Positions 33,801 through 39,567 of a stretch of DNA of 44,544 nt are shown one piece after another. The notes beneath the pieces were generated by a model, which saw nothing but the letters and a program-made list of their open reading frames with translations, ran no database searches and was not told where the DNA came from. Source of the stretch: Escherichia phage EC120. The translations under genes and the position numbers were made by a program. The DNA lies in the sequence record ON185580.1. One strand, written 5' to 3'. The stretch's first letter is position 1, and every line of letters begins with the position of its first letter.

Positions 33801-34156
33801 ATTTGGAAGAGAAGTTATCGCCTAAAGGGTTGGCCTTTGGTGCAATGGGTATGATGAGTACAACTGCTGTATTTAGTCTAGGTGGAGATTTCTTAGGTGG
33901 CCTAGGTGTTCTACCTTCTGAGTTAGTACAATCCCGTTATGAGGCTGGCTTTCAGACTAAGGGTTTGATAGACCAAATACCACTAGTAGGTGTTGGTCAA
34001 GATGCATATCGTTTAGCAGATTCTATAACTAAATACGCAGAGGGTGATACAGAAGGTGTAGATGTGGCACGTAGGGCTTTACGCTTAGTGCCTCTAGCTA
34101 ATGTAATAGGAATCCAGAACGCATTGCGTTATGGCTTAGATGAACTGGAGGATTAA
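30848..34156 (+). CDS. Large internal virion (ejection) protein (gp16-like)
   Basis: 1102 aa; GGAGGA RBS; last and largest of the internal virion protein genes. Confidence 0.75.
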   Translation: MEQDIKTNWAGYVQSTPEPFSIEAAPVSAPTIRQRNELQEQVLEAKADADILGAVGAAFQNEWLAFGGKRWYDRATADFTPQPDFEIQPEQREALRFKYGTDMMQTITEGVRSEDELNFRIQNADEDLERNKRIAQAGWVGSVATIGAAVLDPVGWVASIPTGGAAKVGLVGRAVRSAIAAGVSNAAIESILVQGDMTRDLDDIMVALGSGMAMGGVIGAVARGRATKLSEQGDDRAASIVRSADAGDRYVRAVADDSIGAMRVKGEEVLTEGAFDISSKGEGLLKTLQREGNAIDMTPRRWAGTLSALGTVVHSSQDASVRGLGARLFESPQGLGMQKASASLMQNTNLNRLKSADMNRFNDGFDLWLKENNINPVAGHTNSHYVQQYNEKVWEAVRIGMDESTPKSIRMAAEGQQAMYREALALRQRSGESGFEKVKADDKYMPDIFDSMKARRQFSMHDKEDIIELFSRAYQNGSRKVPKEVADDIARAQVNRVADATLTGQLSFEKAMSGQTKAEYEALMRKAGFSDEEIEKMVEALDNKETRDNISNRAKMSLGLDVTQEYNGIRMRDFMNTNVEELTDNYMKEAAGGAALARQGFSTYQAALNAIDLVERNARNAAKDTKAHAQFEAESAKIRQSEPDYKKAQEKIEELKKRLKLKEKDEAAGLAIDEEIRQMREGLRLIMGKSIDSNPQDLSTKMLRRGRDITGVLRLGQMGFAQLGELANFMGEFGIAATTMALGKQFRFTSKALRNGDGFFRDKNLAEVERMVGYIGEDNWLTTKGARPDEFGDVTTVRGMMAHFDQSMNSIRRAQTNLSLFRMAQGSLERMTNRQIALSFIDHLEGKKIIPQKKLEELGLTQEFMTNLQKHYDANSKGSGLLGFDTMPYAMGETLANAIRRKSGLIIQRNFIGDEGIWMNKALGKTFAQLKSFSLVSGEKQFGRGIRHDKIGLAKKTAYGFALGSIVYAAKAYVNSIGREDQDEYLEEKLSPKGLAFGAMGMMSTTAVFSLGGDFLGGLGVLPSELVQSRYEAGFQTKGLIDQIPLVGVGQDAYRLADSITKYAEGDTEGVDVARRALRLVPLANVIGIQNALRYGLDELED

Positions 34157-35118
34157 TGAGTTATACTTTCACAGAACATATAGCCAACGGTACGCAAGTA
34201 ACCTATCCCTTTAGCTTTGCTGGTAGGGATAAAGGTTATCTTCGTGCCTCAGATGTGATAGTGGAGTCTCTTCAAGGTAACACTTGGATTGAGGTTACAT
34301 CTGGCTGGCAACTAACTGGCACGCACCAGATTACTTTTGATGTAGCACCAGTTGCAGGTTTGAAGTTCCGTATTAGAAGGGAAGTACAAAAGGAGTATCC
34401 ATACGCTGAGTTTGACCGTGGTGTTACCTTGGATATGAAGTCTTTAAATGGTTCTTTCATTCATATACTGGAGATTACACAGGAGTTACTTGACGGGTTT
34501 TATCCAGAAGGATACTTCATTAAACAGAATGTAAGCTGGGGCGGCAATAAGATTACTGATTTGGCTGATGGCACAAATCCGGGAGATGCAGTAAATAAAG
34601 GGCAGCTTGATGCCATCGACAAGAAGCATACAGATTGGAACGCCAAACAGGACATTGAGATTGCTGGCCTTAAGGCTGGTATGACTTCTGGTATTGCGCA
34701 CAGAACTGTTCCTTGGTACACGATAGCCCAAGGTGGTGAGATTTCCGTAAAACCACCTTATGAATTTCAAGATGCACTAGTTTTCCTTAATGGGGTGTTG
34801 CAGCACCAAATTGTAGGCGCATACTCTATAAGCAACAACACTATCACTTTCGCAGAGCCGCTTGTGGCTGGTACAGAGGTGTATGTGCTGATTGGTAGTC
34901 GTGTGGCTACATCTGAACCTAATATTCAGTTAGAGTTGAACTTTGACTTAGTAGAAGGCCAACAAGTAGTACAGATTGGCTCTGCATTTAAGTACATTGA
35001 GGTCTACCTTGATGGATTATTACAACCTAAACTTGCTTATCAGGTAGACGGTGACATTGTTACTTTCTCAGAGGGAGTGCCAGAATGCCGGATGACTGCT
35101 AAGATTATCACAGCATAA
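34156..35118 (+). CDS. Tail-fibre/tailspike adaptor protein (T7 gp17 N-terminal domain-like)
   Basis: N-terminus TYPFSFAGRDKGYLRASDVIVESL...FRIRREV resembles the tail-attachment domain of T7 gp17; no long fibre shaft. Confidence 0.65.
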   Translation: MSYTFTEHIANGTQVTYPFSFAGRDKGYLRASDVIVESLQGNTWIEVTSGWQLTGTHQITFDVAPVAGLKFRIRREVQKEYPYAEFDRGVTLDMKSLNGSFIHILEITQELLDGFYPEGYFIKQNVSWGGNKITDLADGTNPGDAVNKGQLDAIDKKHTDWNAKQDIEIAGLKAGMTSGIAHRTVPWYTIAQGGEISVKPPYEFQDALVFLNGVLQHQIVGAYSISNNTITFAEPLVAGTEVYVLIGSRVATSEPNIQLELNFDLVEGQQVVQIGSAFKYIEVYLDGLLQPKLAYQVDGDIVTFSEGVPECRMTAKIITA

Positions 35119-35127
35119 GGAGGTAGG

Positions 35128-35352
35128 ATGATTAACTCCGAACTGGTAGATAGTGGTGTGAAGCTTGCGCCACCTGCACTCGTATCAGGTGGGTACTTCC
35201 TCGGTATCAGTTGGGATAACTGGCTCGTAATTATGACCCTTATTTACACAGTAATGCAAATGGGTTGGTTTATTTATGAGAAGGTCCAGACTATAAAGAA
35301 GAGGAGAAAAGCTAAATGTACTCAGAAGTTGAAAGAGCAGGATACATCATAA
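35128..35352 (+). CDS. Putative holin (T7 gp17.5-like, 74 aa)
   Basis: AAGGAGG RBS; one strong TM (WLVIMTLIYTVMQMGWFIY) and a basic C-terminus; same relative position as T7 holin. Confidence 0.5.
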   Translation: MINSELVDSGVKLAPPALVSGGYFLGISWDNWLVIMTLIYTVMQMGWFIYEKVQTIKKRRKAKCTQKLKEQDTS

Positions 35353-35747
35353 GAGAAGATGGTGTTATCTTGAGCAAGAAGGGACAGCCGATGGTTGGTG
35401 CTATTCGTGAAAGAGGATACCGCACAGTAACATTAAGGATAGATAATAAATCCAAGACTTATAAAGTACATAGGTTGATTGCATGGAAGCATGTGCCGAA
35501 CCCTCATAACTATAAGGTTGTTAACCATAAAGACCGCAACCCATCTAATTGCCATAAAGATAACCTAGAGTGGTGCACTCAACAGGAAAACACTATACAT
35601 GCACACTATGGTTGTCTTGACATACAAGATAAAATAGATGAAGCCAAAGCATTAAGAAGCCAAGGCTGGTCTTATCCTAAAATCGGTAAATACTTTGGGT
35701 TAGACCATAAGACTGTTTGGTATTGGATTAATGGGAGAAGAACTTGA
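35316..35747 (+). CDS. HNH homing endonuclease (copy 1)
   Basis: HNH signature VNHKDRNPSNCHKDNLEW...QQEN; overlaps holin 3' end and small terminase start. Confidence 0.7.
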   Translation: MYSEVERAGYIIREDGVILSKKGQPMVGAIRERGYRTVTLRIDNKSKTYKVHRLIAWKHVPNPHNYKVVNHKDRNPSNCHKDNLEWCTQQENTIHAHYGCLDIQDKIDEAKALRSQGWSYPKIGKYFGLDHKTVWYWINGRRT

Positions 35748-36043
35748 GCGTACATAACAAACATGCAGCTACAGAAGACGAGGTTGGCATTCTGCATGGT
35801 GCTATTACCAAAATCTTCAATAAGAAAGCACAGGCAATACTGGACACTATAGAAGAAGACCCTGATGCAGCACTGCATTTAGTGTCTGGTAAAGACATTG
35901 GAGCTATGTGTAAGTGGGTTCTTGATAACGGCATTACCGCCACACCTGCTGCACAGCAGGAAGAATCCAAGTTATCTAAGCGCCTCAAGGCTATCCGAGA
36001 GGCATCCAGTGGCAAGATTATTCAGTTTACAAAAGAGGAGTGA
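35744..36043 (+). CDS. Putative terminase small subunit (TTG start)
   Basis: 99 aa directly upstream of large terminase; no in-frame ATG near the 5' end; GGAG 8 nt before TTG 35744. Confidence 0.45.
   Translation: MSVHNKHAATEDEVGILHGAITKIFNKKAQAILDTIEEDPDAALHLVSGKDIGAMCKWVLDNGITATPAAQQEESKLSKRLKAIREASSGKIIQFTKEE
35835..35857 (+). promoter_or_regulatory. Phage promoter-like sequence inside small terminase gene
   Basis: CAATACTGGACACTATAGAAGAA; 3 upstream mismatches to the consensus. Confidence 0.45.
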
Positions 36044-36044
36044 T

Positions 36045-36488
36045 ATGCATAGATGGTGTGAATCTCAAGGTTATACCATCTTACCTTCTGGTGTCATCCT
36101 TTCAAAGGGTGGCACCCCTCTCAAACCATTCAAGGCGGGTAGGGGTTATTTAGCAGTTAAAATTAAAAATAAAGAAGGTAAATGGCGTAATGTCTATGTT
36201 CATCAATTAGTGGCTTATAAATATTTACCTAAAACTAATAATGAAGTAAACCACAAAGACGGCGATAAGCACAACAATGATGTTAGCAACTTGGAGTGGG
36301 TAACAAGAAGCGAGAATAACTATTTAAAATGCAATGGAAATGATAGGAGTGCCTTAAATAGCTATTTAGCAAGATTAAAAGATTGCTTCTTGCAAGGTAA
36401 GGGTGTAGCAGAAACCGCTAGACTTACTGGTAAAAGTGAACCAAGAGTTTCTTCTCTCTTTAAGGAGTGGCGAAATGGCAAAGGCTAG
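36045..36488 (+). CDS. HNH homing endonuclease (copy 2)
   Basis: GAGGAG RBS then ATG 36045; VNHKDGDKHNNDVSNLEW...RSEN; clearly paralogous to copy 1; overlaps large terminase start. Confidence 0.75.
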   Translation: MHRWCESQGYTILPSGVILSKGGTPLKPFKAGRGYLAVKIKNKEGKWRNVYVHQLVAYKYLPKTNNEVNHKDGDKHNNDVSNLEWVTRSENNYLKCNGNDRSALNSYLARLKDCFLQGKGVAETARLTGKSEPRVSSLFKEWRNGKG

Positions 36489-38373
36489 AGAATCACAGGC
36501 AGAGGCATTAAAGCGGTGGGAAAACCTTAAAGAACTACAAGACACTTTTAAATATACAGCGGAAGGTTTGCTTCTCTTTGCAGATACAGTTATTCATAAC
36601 TTAATTGCAGGCAACCCTCATCTGATTCGTATGCAGGCGGATATCTTGAAGTTCCTATTTTACGGACACAAGTACCGCCTCATCGAAGCGCCTCGTGGTA
36701 TCGCTAAGACAACACTATCAGCAATCTATACGGTATTCCGTATTATTCATGAACCGCATAAGCGTATCATGGTTGTGTCCCAAAACGCCAAGCGAGCAGA
36801 GGAAATCGCAGGTTGGGTAGTTAAAATCTTCCGTGGCTTAGACTTTCTTGAGTTTATGCTGCCGGATATCTACGCTGGGGACCGTGCATCCGTTAAGGCG
36901 TTTGAGATTCATTACACCCTACGTGGTAGTGATAAGTCTCCTTCTGTATCCTGTTACTCAATCGAAGCAGGTATGCAGGGTGCTCGTGCTGATATTATTC
37001 TAGCGGATGACGTAGAGTCGATGCAGAATGCTCGTACGGCAGCGGGCCGTGCCTTGCTTGAGGAACTGACTAAGGAGTTTGAATCTATCAACCAGTTTGG
37101 GGATATCATTTACCTTGGTACACCTCAGAACGTAAACTCTATCTACAACAACCTACCTGCTCGTGGTTACTCTGTTCGTATCTGGACTGCGCGTTACCCT
37201 TCAGTAGAGCAAGAGCAATGTTATGGCGACTTCCTTGCACCTATGATTGTTCAAGATATGAAGGACAACCCAGCACTTCGCTCAGGGTACGGGTTGGATG
37301 GTAATAGTGGTGCACCTTGTGCCCCTGAAATGTATGATGATGAAGTCCTGATTGAGAAGGAAATCTCTCAAGGTGCTGCTAAGTTCCAGCTTCAGTTCAT
37401 GCTTAACACTCGCATGATGGATGCTGACAGATACCCATTACGCCTGAACAATCTAATCTTCACCTCGTTTGGTACAGAGGAAGTCCCTGTGATGCCTACG
37501 TGGAGTAATGATTCCATAAACATCATTGGTGATGCACCTAAGTATGGTAACAAGCCTACGGATTTCATGTACAGACCTGTAGCTCGCCCATACGAATGGG
37601 GTGCTGTCTCCCGCAAGATTATGTATATTGACCCTGCGGGTGGTGGTAAGAACGGAGATGAGACGGGTGTAGCCATCGTATTCCTGCACGGCACATTCAT
37701 TTATGTGTATCAGTGCTTTGGTGTACCTGGCGGATACCGAGAGTCGTCCCTGAATCGCATTGTGCAGGCCGCAAAGCAGGCGGGTGTTAAAGAGGTATTC
37801 ATTGAGAAGAACTTTGGTCATGGCGCGTTTGAGGCGGTAATTAAGCCGTACTTTGAACGAGAGTGGCCTGTAACTCTGGAAGAGGATTACGCCACCGGAC
37901 AGAAAGAGTTGCGTATCATTGAGACGCTGGAGCCGCTCATGGCAGCCCATAGGCTTATCTTCAATGCAGAGATGGTGAAGTCAGACTTTGAGTCGGTACA
38001 GCACTATCCGCTTGAACTACGCATGTCCTACAGTCTTTTCAATCAAATGTCGAACATAACGATTGAGAAGAACAGCCTCCGGCACGATGACCGCCTAGAC
38101 GCCCTGTATGGCGCTATACGGCAATTAACTTCTCAGATAGACTATGATGAGGTTACACGGATTAATCGCCTCAGAGCGCAGGAGATGCGCGATTACATCC
38201 ATGCTATGAACACACCTCATCTACGCAGGGCAATGCTATATGGAGATTACGGTACTGAGCGAAGAGTGACCAACACTTCCGTAGCGATGCAGCAGCGAGT
38301 TTACGGGCAGAACTACCGAAATAAATCGGCAAGCAGAAATACACTTTCTGCAAGGATTTCAAGGACTTATTAA
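36475..38373 (+). CDS. Terminase large subunit
   Basis: ATPase region ...YRLIEAPRGIAKTT... and nuclease region parallel recalled T7 gp19; TAAGGAG RBS then ATG 36475 (track start 36436). Confidence 0.9.
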   Translation: MAKARESQAEALKRWENLKELQDTFKYTAEGLLLFADTVIHNLIAGNPHLIRMQADILKFLFYGHKYRLIEAPRGIAKTTLSAIYTVFRIIHEPHKRIMVVSQNAKRAEEIAGWVVKIFRGLDFLEFMLPDIYAGDRASVKAFEIHYTLRGSDKSPSVSCYSIEAGMQGARADIILADDVESMQNARTAAGRALLEELTKEFESINQFGDIIYLGTPQNVNSIYNNLPARGYSVRIWTARYPSVEQEQCYGDFLAPMIVQDMKDNPALRSGYGLDGNSGAPCAPEMYDDEVLIEKEISQGAAKFQLQFMLNTRMMDADRYPLRLNNLIFTSFGTEEVPVMPTWSNDSINIIGDAPKYGNKPTDFMYRPVARPYEWGAVSRKIMYIDPAGGGKNGDETGVAIVFLHGTFIYVYQCFGVPGGYRESSLNRIVQAAKQAGVKEVFIEKNFGHGAFEAVIKPYFEREWPVTLEEDYATGQKELRIIETLEPLMAAHRLIFNAEMVKSDFESVQHYPLELRMSYSLFNQMSNITIEKNSLRHDDRLDALYGAIRQLTSQIDYDEVTRINRLRAQEMRDYIHAMNTPHLRRAMLYGDYGTERRVTNTSVAMQQRVYGQNYRNKSASRNTLSARISRTY

Positions 38374-38394
38374 TTACTGGACACTATAGAAGGA
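38372..38394 (+). promoter_or_regulatory. Phage-RNAP promoter overlapping terminase stop codon
   Basis: AATTACTGGACACTATAGAAGGA; expected +1 G at 38389. Confidence 0.75.
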
Positions 38395-38525
38395 AGGCCC
38401 AGAGAATAAGAGAAATAACAAGGATAATATAGTTAACCTAGGTTATATAGGTTACTATAGTATGGGTGTACTCCTGTACACCCTATTCCTACTTACTATT
38501 TACTTATATGTATAAGGAGTATTAG

Positions 38526-38807
38526 ATGGCTAATGATTATAGTGATCAACCTTTAACGGGTCGATATGACCGTAAGCAGATTACACCGACCAGTGAGGCA
38601 TTAATGCTCCCTGTTGTTACAGAGGAGTCTATTACGAAGAAAGCCAATGTTATCAATGATGCAACCAAATCTGGTAAACAGAAAGCAGCAATGGTATGTC
38701 GTCCTGTAGGTGGCACTCTTGAGATTGCCATTGCTACTGGTAGCAAAGAGGATGCAGATTGGTTGTCTGTTAAAATGGACAGCGTTGGTCTTATTACACC
38801 GGCTTAA
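38526..38807 (+). CDS. Hypothetical protein (93 aa), paralogue A
   Basis: Shares SGKQK(A/G)AMV and (E/Y)IAIA(T/R)GS blocks with the next ORF. Confidence 0.6.
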   Translation: MANDYSDQPLTGRYDRKQITPTSEALMLPVVTEESITKKANVINDATKSGKQKAAMVCRPVGGTLEIAIATGSKEDADWLSVKMDSVGLITPA

Positions 38808-38824
38808 TAAAAGGAGAAGATAAT

Positions 38825-39112
38825 ATGTCTAAGTATGGCGATGCAGGTACGACTACTGGTCAGGTTTTTCGTGTAAAAGCAGTACAAACTATTGCAACTG
38901 CAATTCCTATGCCTATCGTGGCAGAAGCTGACCTTAAAAAGAAAGATCATCCAATTAATATTGAACACCTATCTGGTAAGCAGAAAGGTGCTATGGTGGT
39001 TGTAGATAAAGGAGATAGCCTTTATATTGCTATTGCGCGTGGCTCTGCACCAACTGACAAGTGGGATGCAACTACTATGGAGGTGACACCTGTCACTCCA
39101 GAAGGGGATTAA
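38825..39112 (+). CDS. Hypothetical protein (95 aa), paralogue B
   Basis: Tandem paralogue of 38526-38807; AAGGAGAAGA RBS. Confidence 0.6.
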   Translation: MSKYGDAGTTTGQVFRVKAVQTIATAIPMPIVAEADLKKKDHPINIEHLSGKQKGAMVVVDKGDSLYIAIARGSAPTDKWDATTMEVTPVTPEGD

Positions 39113-39114
39113 TA

Positions 39115-39459
39115 ATGCTTAACAAATACTTCAAGCGTAAAGAGTTCGCTTGCCGTTGTGGGTGCGGTACATCCACTGTTGATGCTGAATTACTACAGGT
39201 AGTCACAGATGTGCGTGAGCACTTTGGTTCTCCTGTAGTTATCACTTCGGGGCATCGCTGTGCTAAGCACAATGCTAATGTAGGAGGAGCTAAGAACTCC
39301 ATGCATCTTACTGGTAAGGCTGCTGACATTAAGGTACGAGGCATCTTACCTTCTGATGTACATAAGTATCTTACTGATAAGTACCAAGGCAAGTATGGTA
39401 TTGGTAAATATACCTCCTTTACTCATATTGATGTACGTGACGGGTGTGCACGATGGTAG
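39115..39459 (+). CDS. Endolysin, peptidase M15-type (zinc D-Ala-D-Ala carboxypeptidase/L-Ala-D-Glu peptidase fold)
   Basis: SGHRC...H...D pattern (ITSGHRCAKHNANVGG...HLTGKAADI...HID) typical of the M15 family; ATG 39115 (track start 39061). Confidence 0.7.
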   Translation: MLNKYFKRKEFACRCGCGTSTVDAELLQVVTDVREHFGSPVVITSGHRCAKHNANVGGAKNSMHLTGKAADIKVRGILPSDVHKYLTDKYQGKYGIGKYTSFTHIDVRDGCARW

Positions 39460-39567
39460 GTTGTGTTGCATGGTGTGAACGCATGGTTGCTAAGGCTTCA
39501 GAGGAAGGCAACTATGAAGATTGGCAGAACTACTCAACTTTATTAGCTCAATGGAAAGGGAGATGCA

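Follow-up and report, generated by a model that had tools for sequence, protein, structure and literature searches.

Two Free-Standing I-HmuI-like HNH Endonuclease Genes, Probably Selfish and Independently Acquired, Flank the Small Terminase Gene of Escherichia Phage EC120

Introduction

I-HmuI of Bacillus phage SPO1 (PDB 1u3e), a 174-residue member of the NUMOD4/HNH_3 family, combines an N-terminal β-sheet region with an HNH ββα-metal core and a C-terminal helix-turn-helix, and lies inside a group I intron. Homing by free-standing homing endonuclease genes (HEGs) has been described in PMC2988022 and PMC2790892, and the seg and mob genes of T4-like phages (such as mobE and SegG) are found between conserved essential genes, are optional among relatives, and come with linked differences in the neighboring genes. 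A T7-like example is ORF48 of Hafnia phage Ca, a polymorphic HEG of 397 bp overlapping the start of the large terminase gene (terL), which, like the HEG upstream of terL in Citrobacter phage CR44b, encodes a 143-residue HNH protein, overlaps the stop codon of the upstream gene as well as the start of terL, and shows a presence/absence polymorphism of ∼0.4 kb (PMC8861465). HNH proteins are also encoded beside the terminase genes in HK97 (gp74) and in phage gamma (N.phiGamma), both cos-type phages. There, however, the proteins are conserved and have a zinc-binding core of the [CxxC]2 or CxxC/CxxH type, a site given as the hallmark of HNH proteins encoded next to terminases, gp74 among them (PMC3592412). 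HK97 gp74 is required for packaging, according to work cited in PMC8861465.

Here, we analyze two HNH genes, HNH1 and HNH2, that bracket the small terminase gene (terS) of Escherichia phage EC120 (sequence record ON185580.1; the window is the entire 44,544-nucleotide stretch of this DNA). The resemblance to the T4-like seg and mob genes lies in the position between conserved essential genes, the optional occurrence, and the linked differences in the neighboring genes, whereas EC120 belongs to the T7 supergroup, two HEGs bracket one gene of 300 bp, and the arrangement is known here from sequence. The HEGs of Hafnia phage Ca and Citrobacter phage CR44b, in turn, are found in Kayfunavirus with a lysis gene as the upstream neighbor, while EC120 is a Vectrevirus in which the upstream neighbor of the terL-proximal HEG is terS, and their sequences are not close to that of HNH2. 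We consider it very likely that HNH1 and HNH2 are independently acquired, free-standing HEGs of the I-HmuI/HNH_3 type that have spread by intronless homing, each apparently inserted into a different one of the two gene junctions on either side of the 300-bp terS of a K1-5-like Vectrevirus. As such, they give a clear-cut but unremarkable example, of a known kind, of selfish genes carried by a T7-type phage.

Results and Discussion

Organization of the terS Locus

The window is that of a Vectrevirus (K1-5/SP6-like Autographiviridae, Molineuxvirinae): a 2-kb query around the terS locus matches 77 phage records, nearly all of them Escherichia Vectrevirus phages, with Escherichia phage 6948 as the best match (99.5% identity over the part common to both). 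The genes run in the order internal virion protein, tail fiber, class II holin, HNH1, terS, HNH2, and terL, where the two HNH genes are the optional members of the series (Table 1). The coordinates originally predicted for HNH1, terS, HNH2, and the terL overlap are exact to the base. HNH1, which starts at an ATG, shares 37 nt with the holin gene and 4 nt with terS (TTGA, made up of the TTG start of terS and the TGA stop of HNH1), and HNH2 begins 1 nt past the terS stop and overlaps terL, from the ATG of the latter at 36475, by 14 nt. Relatives free of HNH genes begin terL at the same position of the protein (MAKARESQ), and in these the terL start overlaps the stop codon of terS.

Table 1. Features of the terS Locus of Phage EC120, in Coordinates of the Window
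Feature	Coordinates	Strand	Evidence
Class II holin, 74 aa	35128..35352	+	Pfam Phage_holin_2_2, E = 5.7e-19
HNH1 cassette	35220..35776	+	mapping of mismatches to loci that have HNH1 and to loci that lack it
HNH1, I-HmuI-like free-standing HNH endonuclease gene, 143 aa	35316..35747	+	HNH_3, E = 5e-9
terS, small terminase subunit, 99 aa, TTG start	35744..36043	+	DNA_Packaging_2, E = 3.6e-16
HNH2 cassette	36013..36555	+	variants strictly linked to HNH2
HNH2, I-HmuI-like free-standing HNH endonuclease gene, 147 aa	36045..36488	+	HNH_3, E = 2.6e-11
terL, large terminase subunit, 632 aa, T7 type	36475..38373	+	Pfam Terminase-T7_RNaseH-like PF22530, E = 1.5e-35

A group I intron context such as that of I-HmuI was considered for the HNH genes and rejected, as an Rfam scan of positions 34800–37000 returned no family at E ≤ 1 and no intron-like RNA, and the neighboring genes are uninterrupted; HNH1 and HNH2 are thus free-standing, between intact genes. 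In the surrounding region (34000–39500), the counts of σ70 promoters and of terminators are at or below the shuffled expectation, and no terminal direct repeats of at least 60 nt, which would have confirmed T7-type packaging, are present within the window. Translation signals accompany each of the inserted genes: HNH1 starts within the holin tail, 9 nt downstream of a GAGGAG motif, HNH2 relies on a GAGGAG in the terminal part of terS, a motif by which terL is served in empty genomes, and the 3′ end of HNH2 itself carries an AAGGAG (36462–36467) located 7 nt before the terL ATG. The Shine–Dalgarno motifs and overlaps that the inserted segments supply would therefore preserve the coupled translation of the late operon.

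HNH1 and HNH2 as Relatives of I-HmuI

Both open reading frames encode HNH endonucleases, as the original prediction had it. Their scores against the Pfam family HNH_3 (36.1 bits for HNH1 and 43.4 bits for HNH2) exceed the curated cutoff of 24.8, and both match PHROG 59, “HNH endonuclease” (E = 4e-36 and 1e-29, respectively). The sole significant solved relative of either protein, by sequence as well as by fold, is I-HmuI: sequence comparison with 1u3e gives E values of 1.4e-8 (HNH1) and 5.4e-6 (HNH2), and Foldseek searches of the PDB with the predicted models (mean pLDDT of 86.7 for HNH1 and 78.7 for HNH2) each return a single match at E ≤ 0.001, namely 1u3e (HNH1, E = 2.5e-7, 151 aligned columns; HNH2, E = 5.1e-8, 115 aligned columns). 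The likeness comprises the N-terminal β-sheet region and the ββα-metal core, in which the catalytic His and Asn are kept, in proteins shorter than I-HmuI (143 and 147 residues). The C-terminal helix-turn-helix of I-HmuI may have a counterpart in HNH1, with a match to HTH_23 that lies under the gathering score (E = 1.8e-4) and three confident helices at residues 103–139. The C-terminal half of HNH2 is modeled as helical with a pLDDT of ∼55, and has a weak match to σ-factor region 4 (E = 0.5).

In an alignment with nine database homologues, retrieved by a word-indexed search with the HNH1 protein, and a third Vectrevirus HNH protein, residues H52, H71, D73, N78, N83, and N92 of HNH1 are invariant, as are H70 and D72, the HNH2 equivalents of H71 and D73. 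The residue preceding the catalytic His, which is Asp74 in I-HmuI, is Asn in HNH1 and HNH2 as in most of their close homologues (11 of 12). We considered this Asn as a possible inactivating lesion and rejected it, since Asn is nearly invariant among the homologues. Both EC120 copies are full length, with every conserved motif residue present.

These family assignments bear on a second proposal of the original prediction, namely, that the HNH proteins are partners of the terminase. In that case they would be accessory subunits of the packaging machine, needed for terminase cutting in the manner of HK97 gp74 and the HNH proteins of staphylococcal cos phages. The two genes do adjoin terS and terL directly, HNH genes located beside the terminase are known to function in packaging in other phages (PMC3592412; Kala et al. 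2014, cited in PMC8861465), and HNH1 has a match to Terminase_5 (E = 0.0017). This match, however, is below threshold (18.7 bits against a cutoff of 20.3) and is limited to the putative helix-turn-helix (residues 108–139), which HTH_23 fits better, so that we rejected it, and the fold search with both proteins yields I-HmuI only. Furthermore, both proteins belong to HNH_3 rather than to the zinc-binding HNH proteins, and the hallmark zinc site, looked for as either [CxxC]2 or CxxC plus CxxH, is absent from both, each having three scattered Cys residues and one isolated HxxC. The Pfam match of terL is confined to the T7-type RNaseH-like terminase domain (PF22530), and is thus not to the Terminase_1 family for which an HNH requirement has been reported (as quoted from PMC8861465). 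Finally, the genes are dispensable, in that K1-5 and many other close relatives package their DNA with neither of them. A role as terminase partners is thus not borne out, and we regard it as extremely improbable.

The two genes had also been described as paralogous, which is correct at the family level and not beyond it. HNH1 and HNH2 belong to the same family, are of similar length, lie 300 bp apart, and show 41% identity in 95 N-terminal residues (E = 1e-17), as might be the case for true in-genome paralogues that arose by local duplication around terS. Their C-terminal halves, however, do not align, each of the two genes is found alone in many relatives, and an HNH gene of a third lineage occupies the HNH2 site in an IMG/VR phage (L005). 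In addition, HNH1 scores higher against the HNH genes of phages unrelated to EC120, namely Klebsiella, crAss-like, Vibrio, and Staphylococcus phages (73–76 bits), than against HNH2 (61 bits), and these scores point toward the two not being sister groups. We hold an origin by local duplication to be most improbable, and the independent acquisition of the two genes remains our preferred reading. With respect to HNH2, no phage record outside Vectrevirus reaches 60% identity.

Occupancy of the Two Junctions among Relatives

All four possible occupancy states are found on flanks that are at least 97% identical: neither HNH gene in K1-5, in which terS overlaps the holin gene by 17 nt; HNH2 only in VEc3 and AAPEc6; HNH1 only in ULINTec4, 6948, and K1E (record KY435490); and HNH1 together with HNH2 in the EC120 window plus one or two SRA contigs (L031 and L036, the latter a contig of 965 nt in which HNH2 reaches no further than codon 62). 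Most Vectrevirus genomes lack both genes, their terS and terL being otherwise near-identical to those of the carriers. Of 10 contigs that match the HNH1 protein exactly, 8 carry HNH1 alone and 2 carry both genes, and HNH2 stands alone in 10 of 10 contigs with the exact HNH2 protein among the matches listed, where loci retrieved by exact protein sequence are not an unbiased sample. In GenBank, HNH2 is present at an identity of at least 90% in 17 records and an HNH1-type gene at an identity of at least 60% in 5, while no GenBank record has both, and none covers at least 80% of the 2-kb query. The double arrangement is thus uncommon but not unique.

The copies themselves also vary. K1E has an intact HNH1 of 143 codons at 83% identity, the HNH1 of ACG-C91 (76% identity) is disrupted by a frameshift, and the third HNH gene, which L005 carries at the terS/terL junction, encodes a protein 35–38% identical to both EC120 proteins. 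The records of VEc3, AAPEc6, and KMB47 already label HNH2 an “HNH endonuclease” or “HNH homing endonuclease”, and the ACG-C91 record annotates HNH1. The literature that we found on these particular Vectrevirus HEGs consists of passing mentions, and a 2026 preprint notes that another Vectrevirus has two HNH genes more than K1-5.

Taking these distributions into account, the reading of HNH1 and HNH2 as selfish homing endonuclease genes, which the original prediction had offered alongside the packaging role, is supported by the independent presence and absence of the two genes on near-identical flanks, the existence of one decayed copy, and the I-HmuI type of both proteins. In practical terms, HNH1 and HNH2 would be optional selfish genes outside the packaging machinery and would be removable, and the value of the present analysis is chiefly for annotation and phage engineering.

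Cassette Boundaries and Linked Recoding

Comparison with relatives lacking the HNH genes, which had been suggested as a check, defined the insertion boundaries (Table 1). Each HNH gene resides on a discrete cassette of ∼0.55 kb with fixed ends, found or missing irrespective of the other, with a net gain over K1-5 of 438 nt for the HNH1 cassette and 432 nt for the HNH2 cassette. The HNH1 cassette takes in a replaced 3′ half of the holin gene, HNH1 itself, the base at 35744, and, further into terS, synonymous substitutions at 35755, 35758, and 35776, all three strictly linked to HNH1. The holin gene belongs to the cassette from about position 35220 onward, giving a protein of 74 residues as opposed to the 64 residues of the K1-5 type, as seen in an alignment with K1-5, VEc3, ULINTec4, and ACG-C91. 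Among the loci compared, the 74-residue type occurs only with HNH1.

The HNH2 cassette comprises the last ∼10 codons of terS, HNH2, and the first 27 codons of terL, which are heavily recoded. At the 3′ end of terS, 7 nucleotide changes in the last 12 codons (stop included) are linked to HNH2. Codons 1–32 of terL show 29 nucleotide differences from K1-5 in 96 nt (15 synonymous and 5 nonsynonymous codons), as compared to 3 differences in the next 1329 nt. This recoded 5′ type of terL is present in 15 of 15 loci with HNH2 and in 0 of 31 loci without it, and the tract in 61 GenBank records falls into two groups, 17 at an identity of at least 94.6% and 44 at 60–80%, with none between and with perfect linkage to HNH2. 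We found no HEG-less source of the tract in 50,697 phage records, the tract always being accompanied by HNH2. The divergence reaches 67 nt past the HNH2 stop, and overlap with the HNH2 coding sequence is therefore not its cause.

Recoding of a neighboring essential gene is what intronless homing, by analogy with the described systems, would predict, either as immunity of the target site or as co-converted donor sequence. We note, however, that the linked flanks end at the same positions in every locus examined, and are not the graded co-conversion tracts expected from many homing events, such that one ancient acquisition followed by ordinary recombination could equally have produced them. Separately, the sharp bounds of the recoded flanks predict the positions of the target sites.

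The uniform cassette ends, which are consistent with spread by general recombination, also allow for a different view of the HNH genes, in which these are relics, inactive or in the course of decay, or else domesticated genes (for instance, serving to exclude competing phages), and are kept by linkage to essential late genes and not by homing. Decay does happen, as seen from the frameshift in ACG-C91, and HNH1 is left unannotated in at least two GenBank genomes. The EC120 copies, however, retain their full length and each conserved motif residue, identical HNH proteins recur across many independent samples whose backgrounds are otherwise mosaic, and the intact K1E copy implies selection for an open frame across the 83% identity that separates it from EC120. 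Inactivating mutations, which had been named in advance as contrary evidence, are thus found in one relative and not in EC120, where both copies are intact, and we regard the relic or domestication scenario as quite unlikely.

Returning to intronless homing, I-HmuI and the T4 seg and mob genes suggest how HNH1 and HNH2 might spread. In a mixed infection, each enzyme would nick or cut the HEG-less allele near its own insertion point, repair from the HEG-bearing genome would copy the cassette in, and the recoded flanks would shield the carrier from its own enzyme. A genome with both HEGs, such as EC120, could then result from two homing events or from a crossover within terS. Family membership and the optional, mobile distribution are observed here, and from the same analogy we infer cleavage, target sites, and biased inheritance. 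The four occupancy states, the decayed copy of ACG-C91, the third HNH lineage at the terS/terL junction, and the sharp limits of the recoded flanks would make the terS locus a natural system for the study of intronless homing in a T7-type phage.

A more elaborate version of this scenario, which we think unlikely, is that the two HEGs act as a composite unit, cleaving genomes that lack them to the left and to the right of terS and thereby driving their own terS allele, an embedded SP6-type promoter, and the recoded 5′ end of terL through populations of Vectrevirus. If so, the unit would amount to a “packaging-gene drive” or a device for interphage exclusion, and toggling between GTG, ATG, and TTG start codons would tune the dosage of terS as a side effect of the cassette carried.

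Start Codon of terS

The original prediction that terS starts at TTG, with no plausible in-frame ATG, is confirmed. In the terS frame, a TAA at 35729 is followed by four nonstart codons and then by the TTG at 35744, which is the sole ATG, GTG, or TTG before codon 47; the next candidates are a GTG at codon 47 and an ATG at codon 55 of 99. The TTG is preceded, at a distance of 6 nt, by a GGGAG Shine–Dalgarno motif (35733–35737), the DNA_Packaging_2 match of the protein begins at residue 9, and residues 2–14 are conserved in relatives. Translation of terS thus probably restarts at the HNH1 stop, behind this GGGAG.

It had further been supposed that insertion of the HNH gene reshaped the start of terS, and this holds in part. 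The sequence common to loci with and without HNH1 starts at the TGA of xTGAGCGTACA, such that the start codon of terS has its first base on the cassette side, and the right edge of the HNH1 cassette did alter the codon. A non-ATG start nevertheless existed beforehand: in loci free of HNH1, terS starts with GTG in 30 of 31 cases and with ATG in one, and the GTG start extends to relatives with only 69–82% identity in terS. The non-ATG start thus appears to be ancestral in the genus and not a product of the HNH1 insertion. The codon is TTG in 13 of 13 loci with the EC120-type HNH1 allele, and ATG in K1E and ACG-C91, which carry the K1E-type HNH1. An ATG-initiated terS beside an HNH gene at the same site, which had been listed as an observation that would speak against the prediction, therefore does occur in K1E, the HNH1 of which is 83% identical to that of EC120. 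The TTG of EC120 is the cassette-side variant of a start codon for which empty genomes have GTG and carriers of the K1E-type HNH1 have ATG. For annotation, this means that terS in Vectrevirus starts at GTG, or at TTG when the HNH1 cassette of EC120 type is present, and that gene callers restricted to ATG would truncate terS.

Repeated Invasion of the terS/terL Junction

The junction between the small (terS) and large (terL) terminase genes, occupied by HNH2 in the window, has been invaded by HNH genes at least twice, as it carries a different, intact HNH_3 gene in one relative (locus L005), in which the 5′ sequence of terL is of the type found in K1-5, a relative that lacks both HNH1 and HNH2, and not of the recoded type. 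We note that the L005 gene, which occupies the same junction as HNH2, shares 35–38% identity with HNH1 and HNH2. The coordinates of this gene and of the other features discussed here are collected in the table below.

Features of the window and of the loci compared with it
Feature	Location	Source	Remarks
HNH_3 gene	L005 2804-3232	IMGVR_UViG_3300045988_003055	third HNH gene, intact; terS/terL junction
HNH1-type gene	L003 1207-1634	phage ACG-C91, NC_019403	frameshifted
HNH1 gene	L026 1619-2046 / L025 1-3	phage 6948, OL362272	intact, unannotated
HNH1 gene	L004 1201-1632	ULINTec4, MZ997839	intact, unannotated
terS start	L006 2501	IMGVR_UViG_2974615129_000001, 37775 nt	ATG
SP6-type phage promoter site	35829-35855; core GACACTATAGAAG at 35843-35855	window	inside terS, between the two homing endonuclease genes
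Small ORF	38526-38807	window	93 aa; downstream of terL
Small ORF	38825-39112	window	95 aa; downstream of terL

Decay and Annotation of HNH1 Copies

In phage ACG-C91, the site of HNH1 is occupied by a decaying HNH1-type gene, with a frameshift close to codon 112 and an annotated product that ends early, without the helix-turn-helix, and this gene adjoins a terS gene with an ATG start. Among the HNH1-free loci, terS starts with ATG only in L006, where the Shine-Dalgarno context is slightly altered (ggaggaggagccATG), and with GTG elsewhere. In the GenBank records of phages 6948 and ULINTec4, HNH1 is intact yet unannotated; the 6948 record is linearized precisely at the terS TTG, and the HNH1 stop codon is therefore divided between the two ends of the record.

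HNH1 content also seems to differ between the two deposited "K1E" genomes (44,246 and 45,251 bp; KY435490 compared with AM084415/NC_007637), since only one K1E-named record is found among the HNH1-type tblastn matches at ≥60% identity.

The genus as a whole shows hypervariability in the C-terminal half of the holin, with 37–72% identity to the window holin in loci L007, L014, and L016–L023, and this variability persists where terS is ≥93% identical. Thus, the stretch that the HNH1 cassette replaces is a recombination-prone or fast-evolving spot regardless of the cassette.

Neighboring Sequence Features

The SP6-type promoter core within terS is an exact match to the core that recurs at approximately nine further sites of the window genome (consensus ATTTACTGGACACTATAGAAG), with the 5′ portion of the terS site (CAATACTG) differing from the consensus at two to three positions. 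The site is kept in relatives of the K1-5 group and is missing in more distant relatives, and this putative promoter could drive the transcription of HNH2 and terL.

A terminal direct repeat is expected in a T7/SP6-type genome. No direct repeats of ≥60 nt were found across window positions 1–44544, and thus the expected repeat is not present twice in the window sequence.

Finally, the adjacent 93- and 95-aa ORFs, which are followed by the Peptidase_M15 endolysin gene, are paralogous to each other, aligning over 83 aa with 40% identity (E = 8e-13), and are annotated in phage 6948 as hypothetical proteins only.
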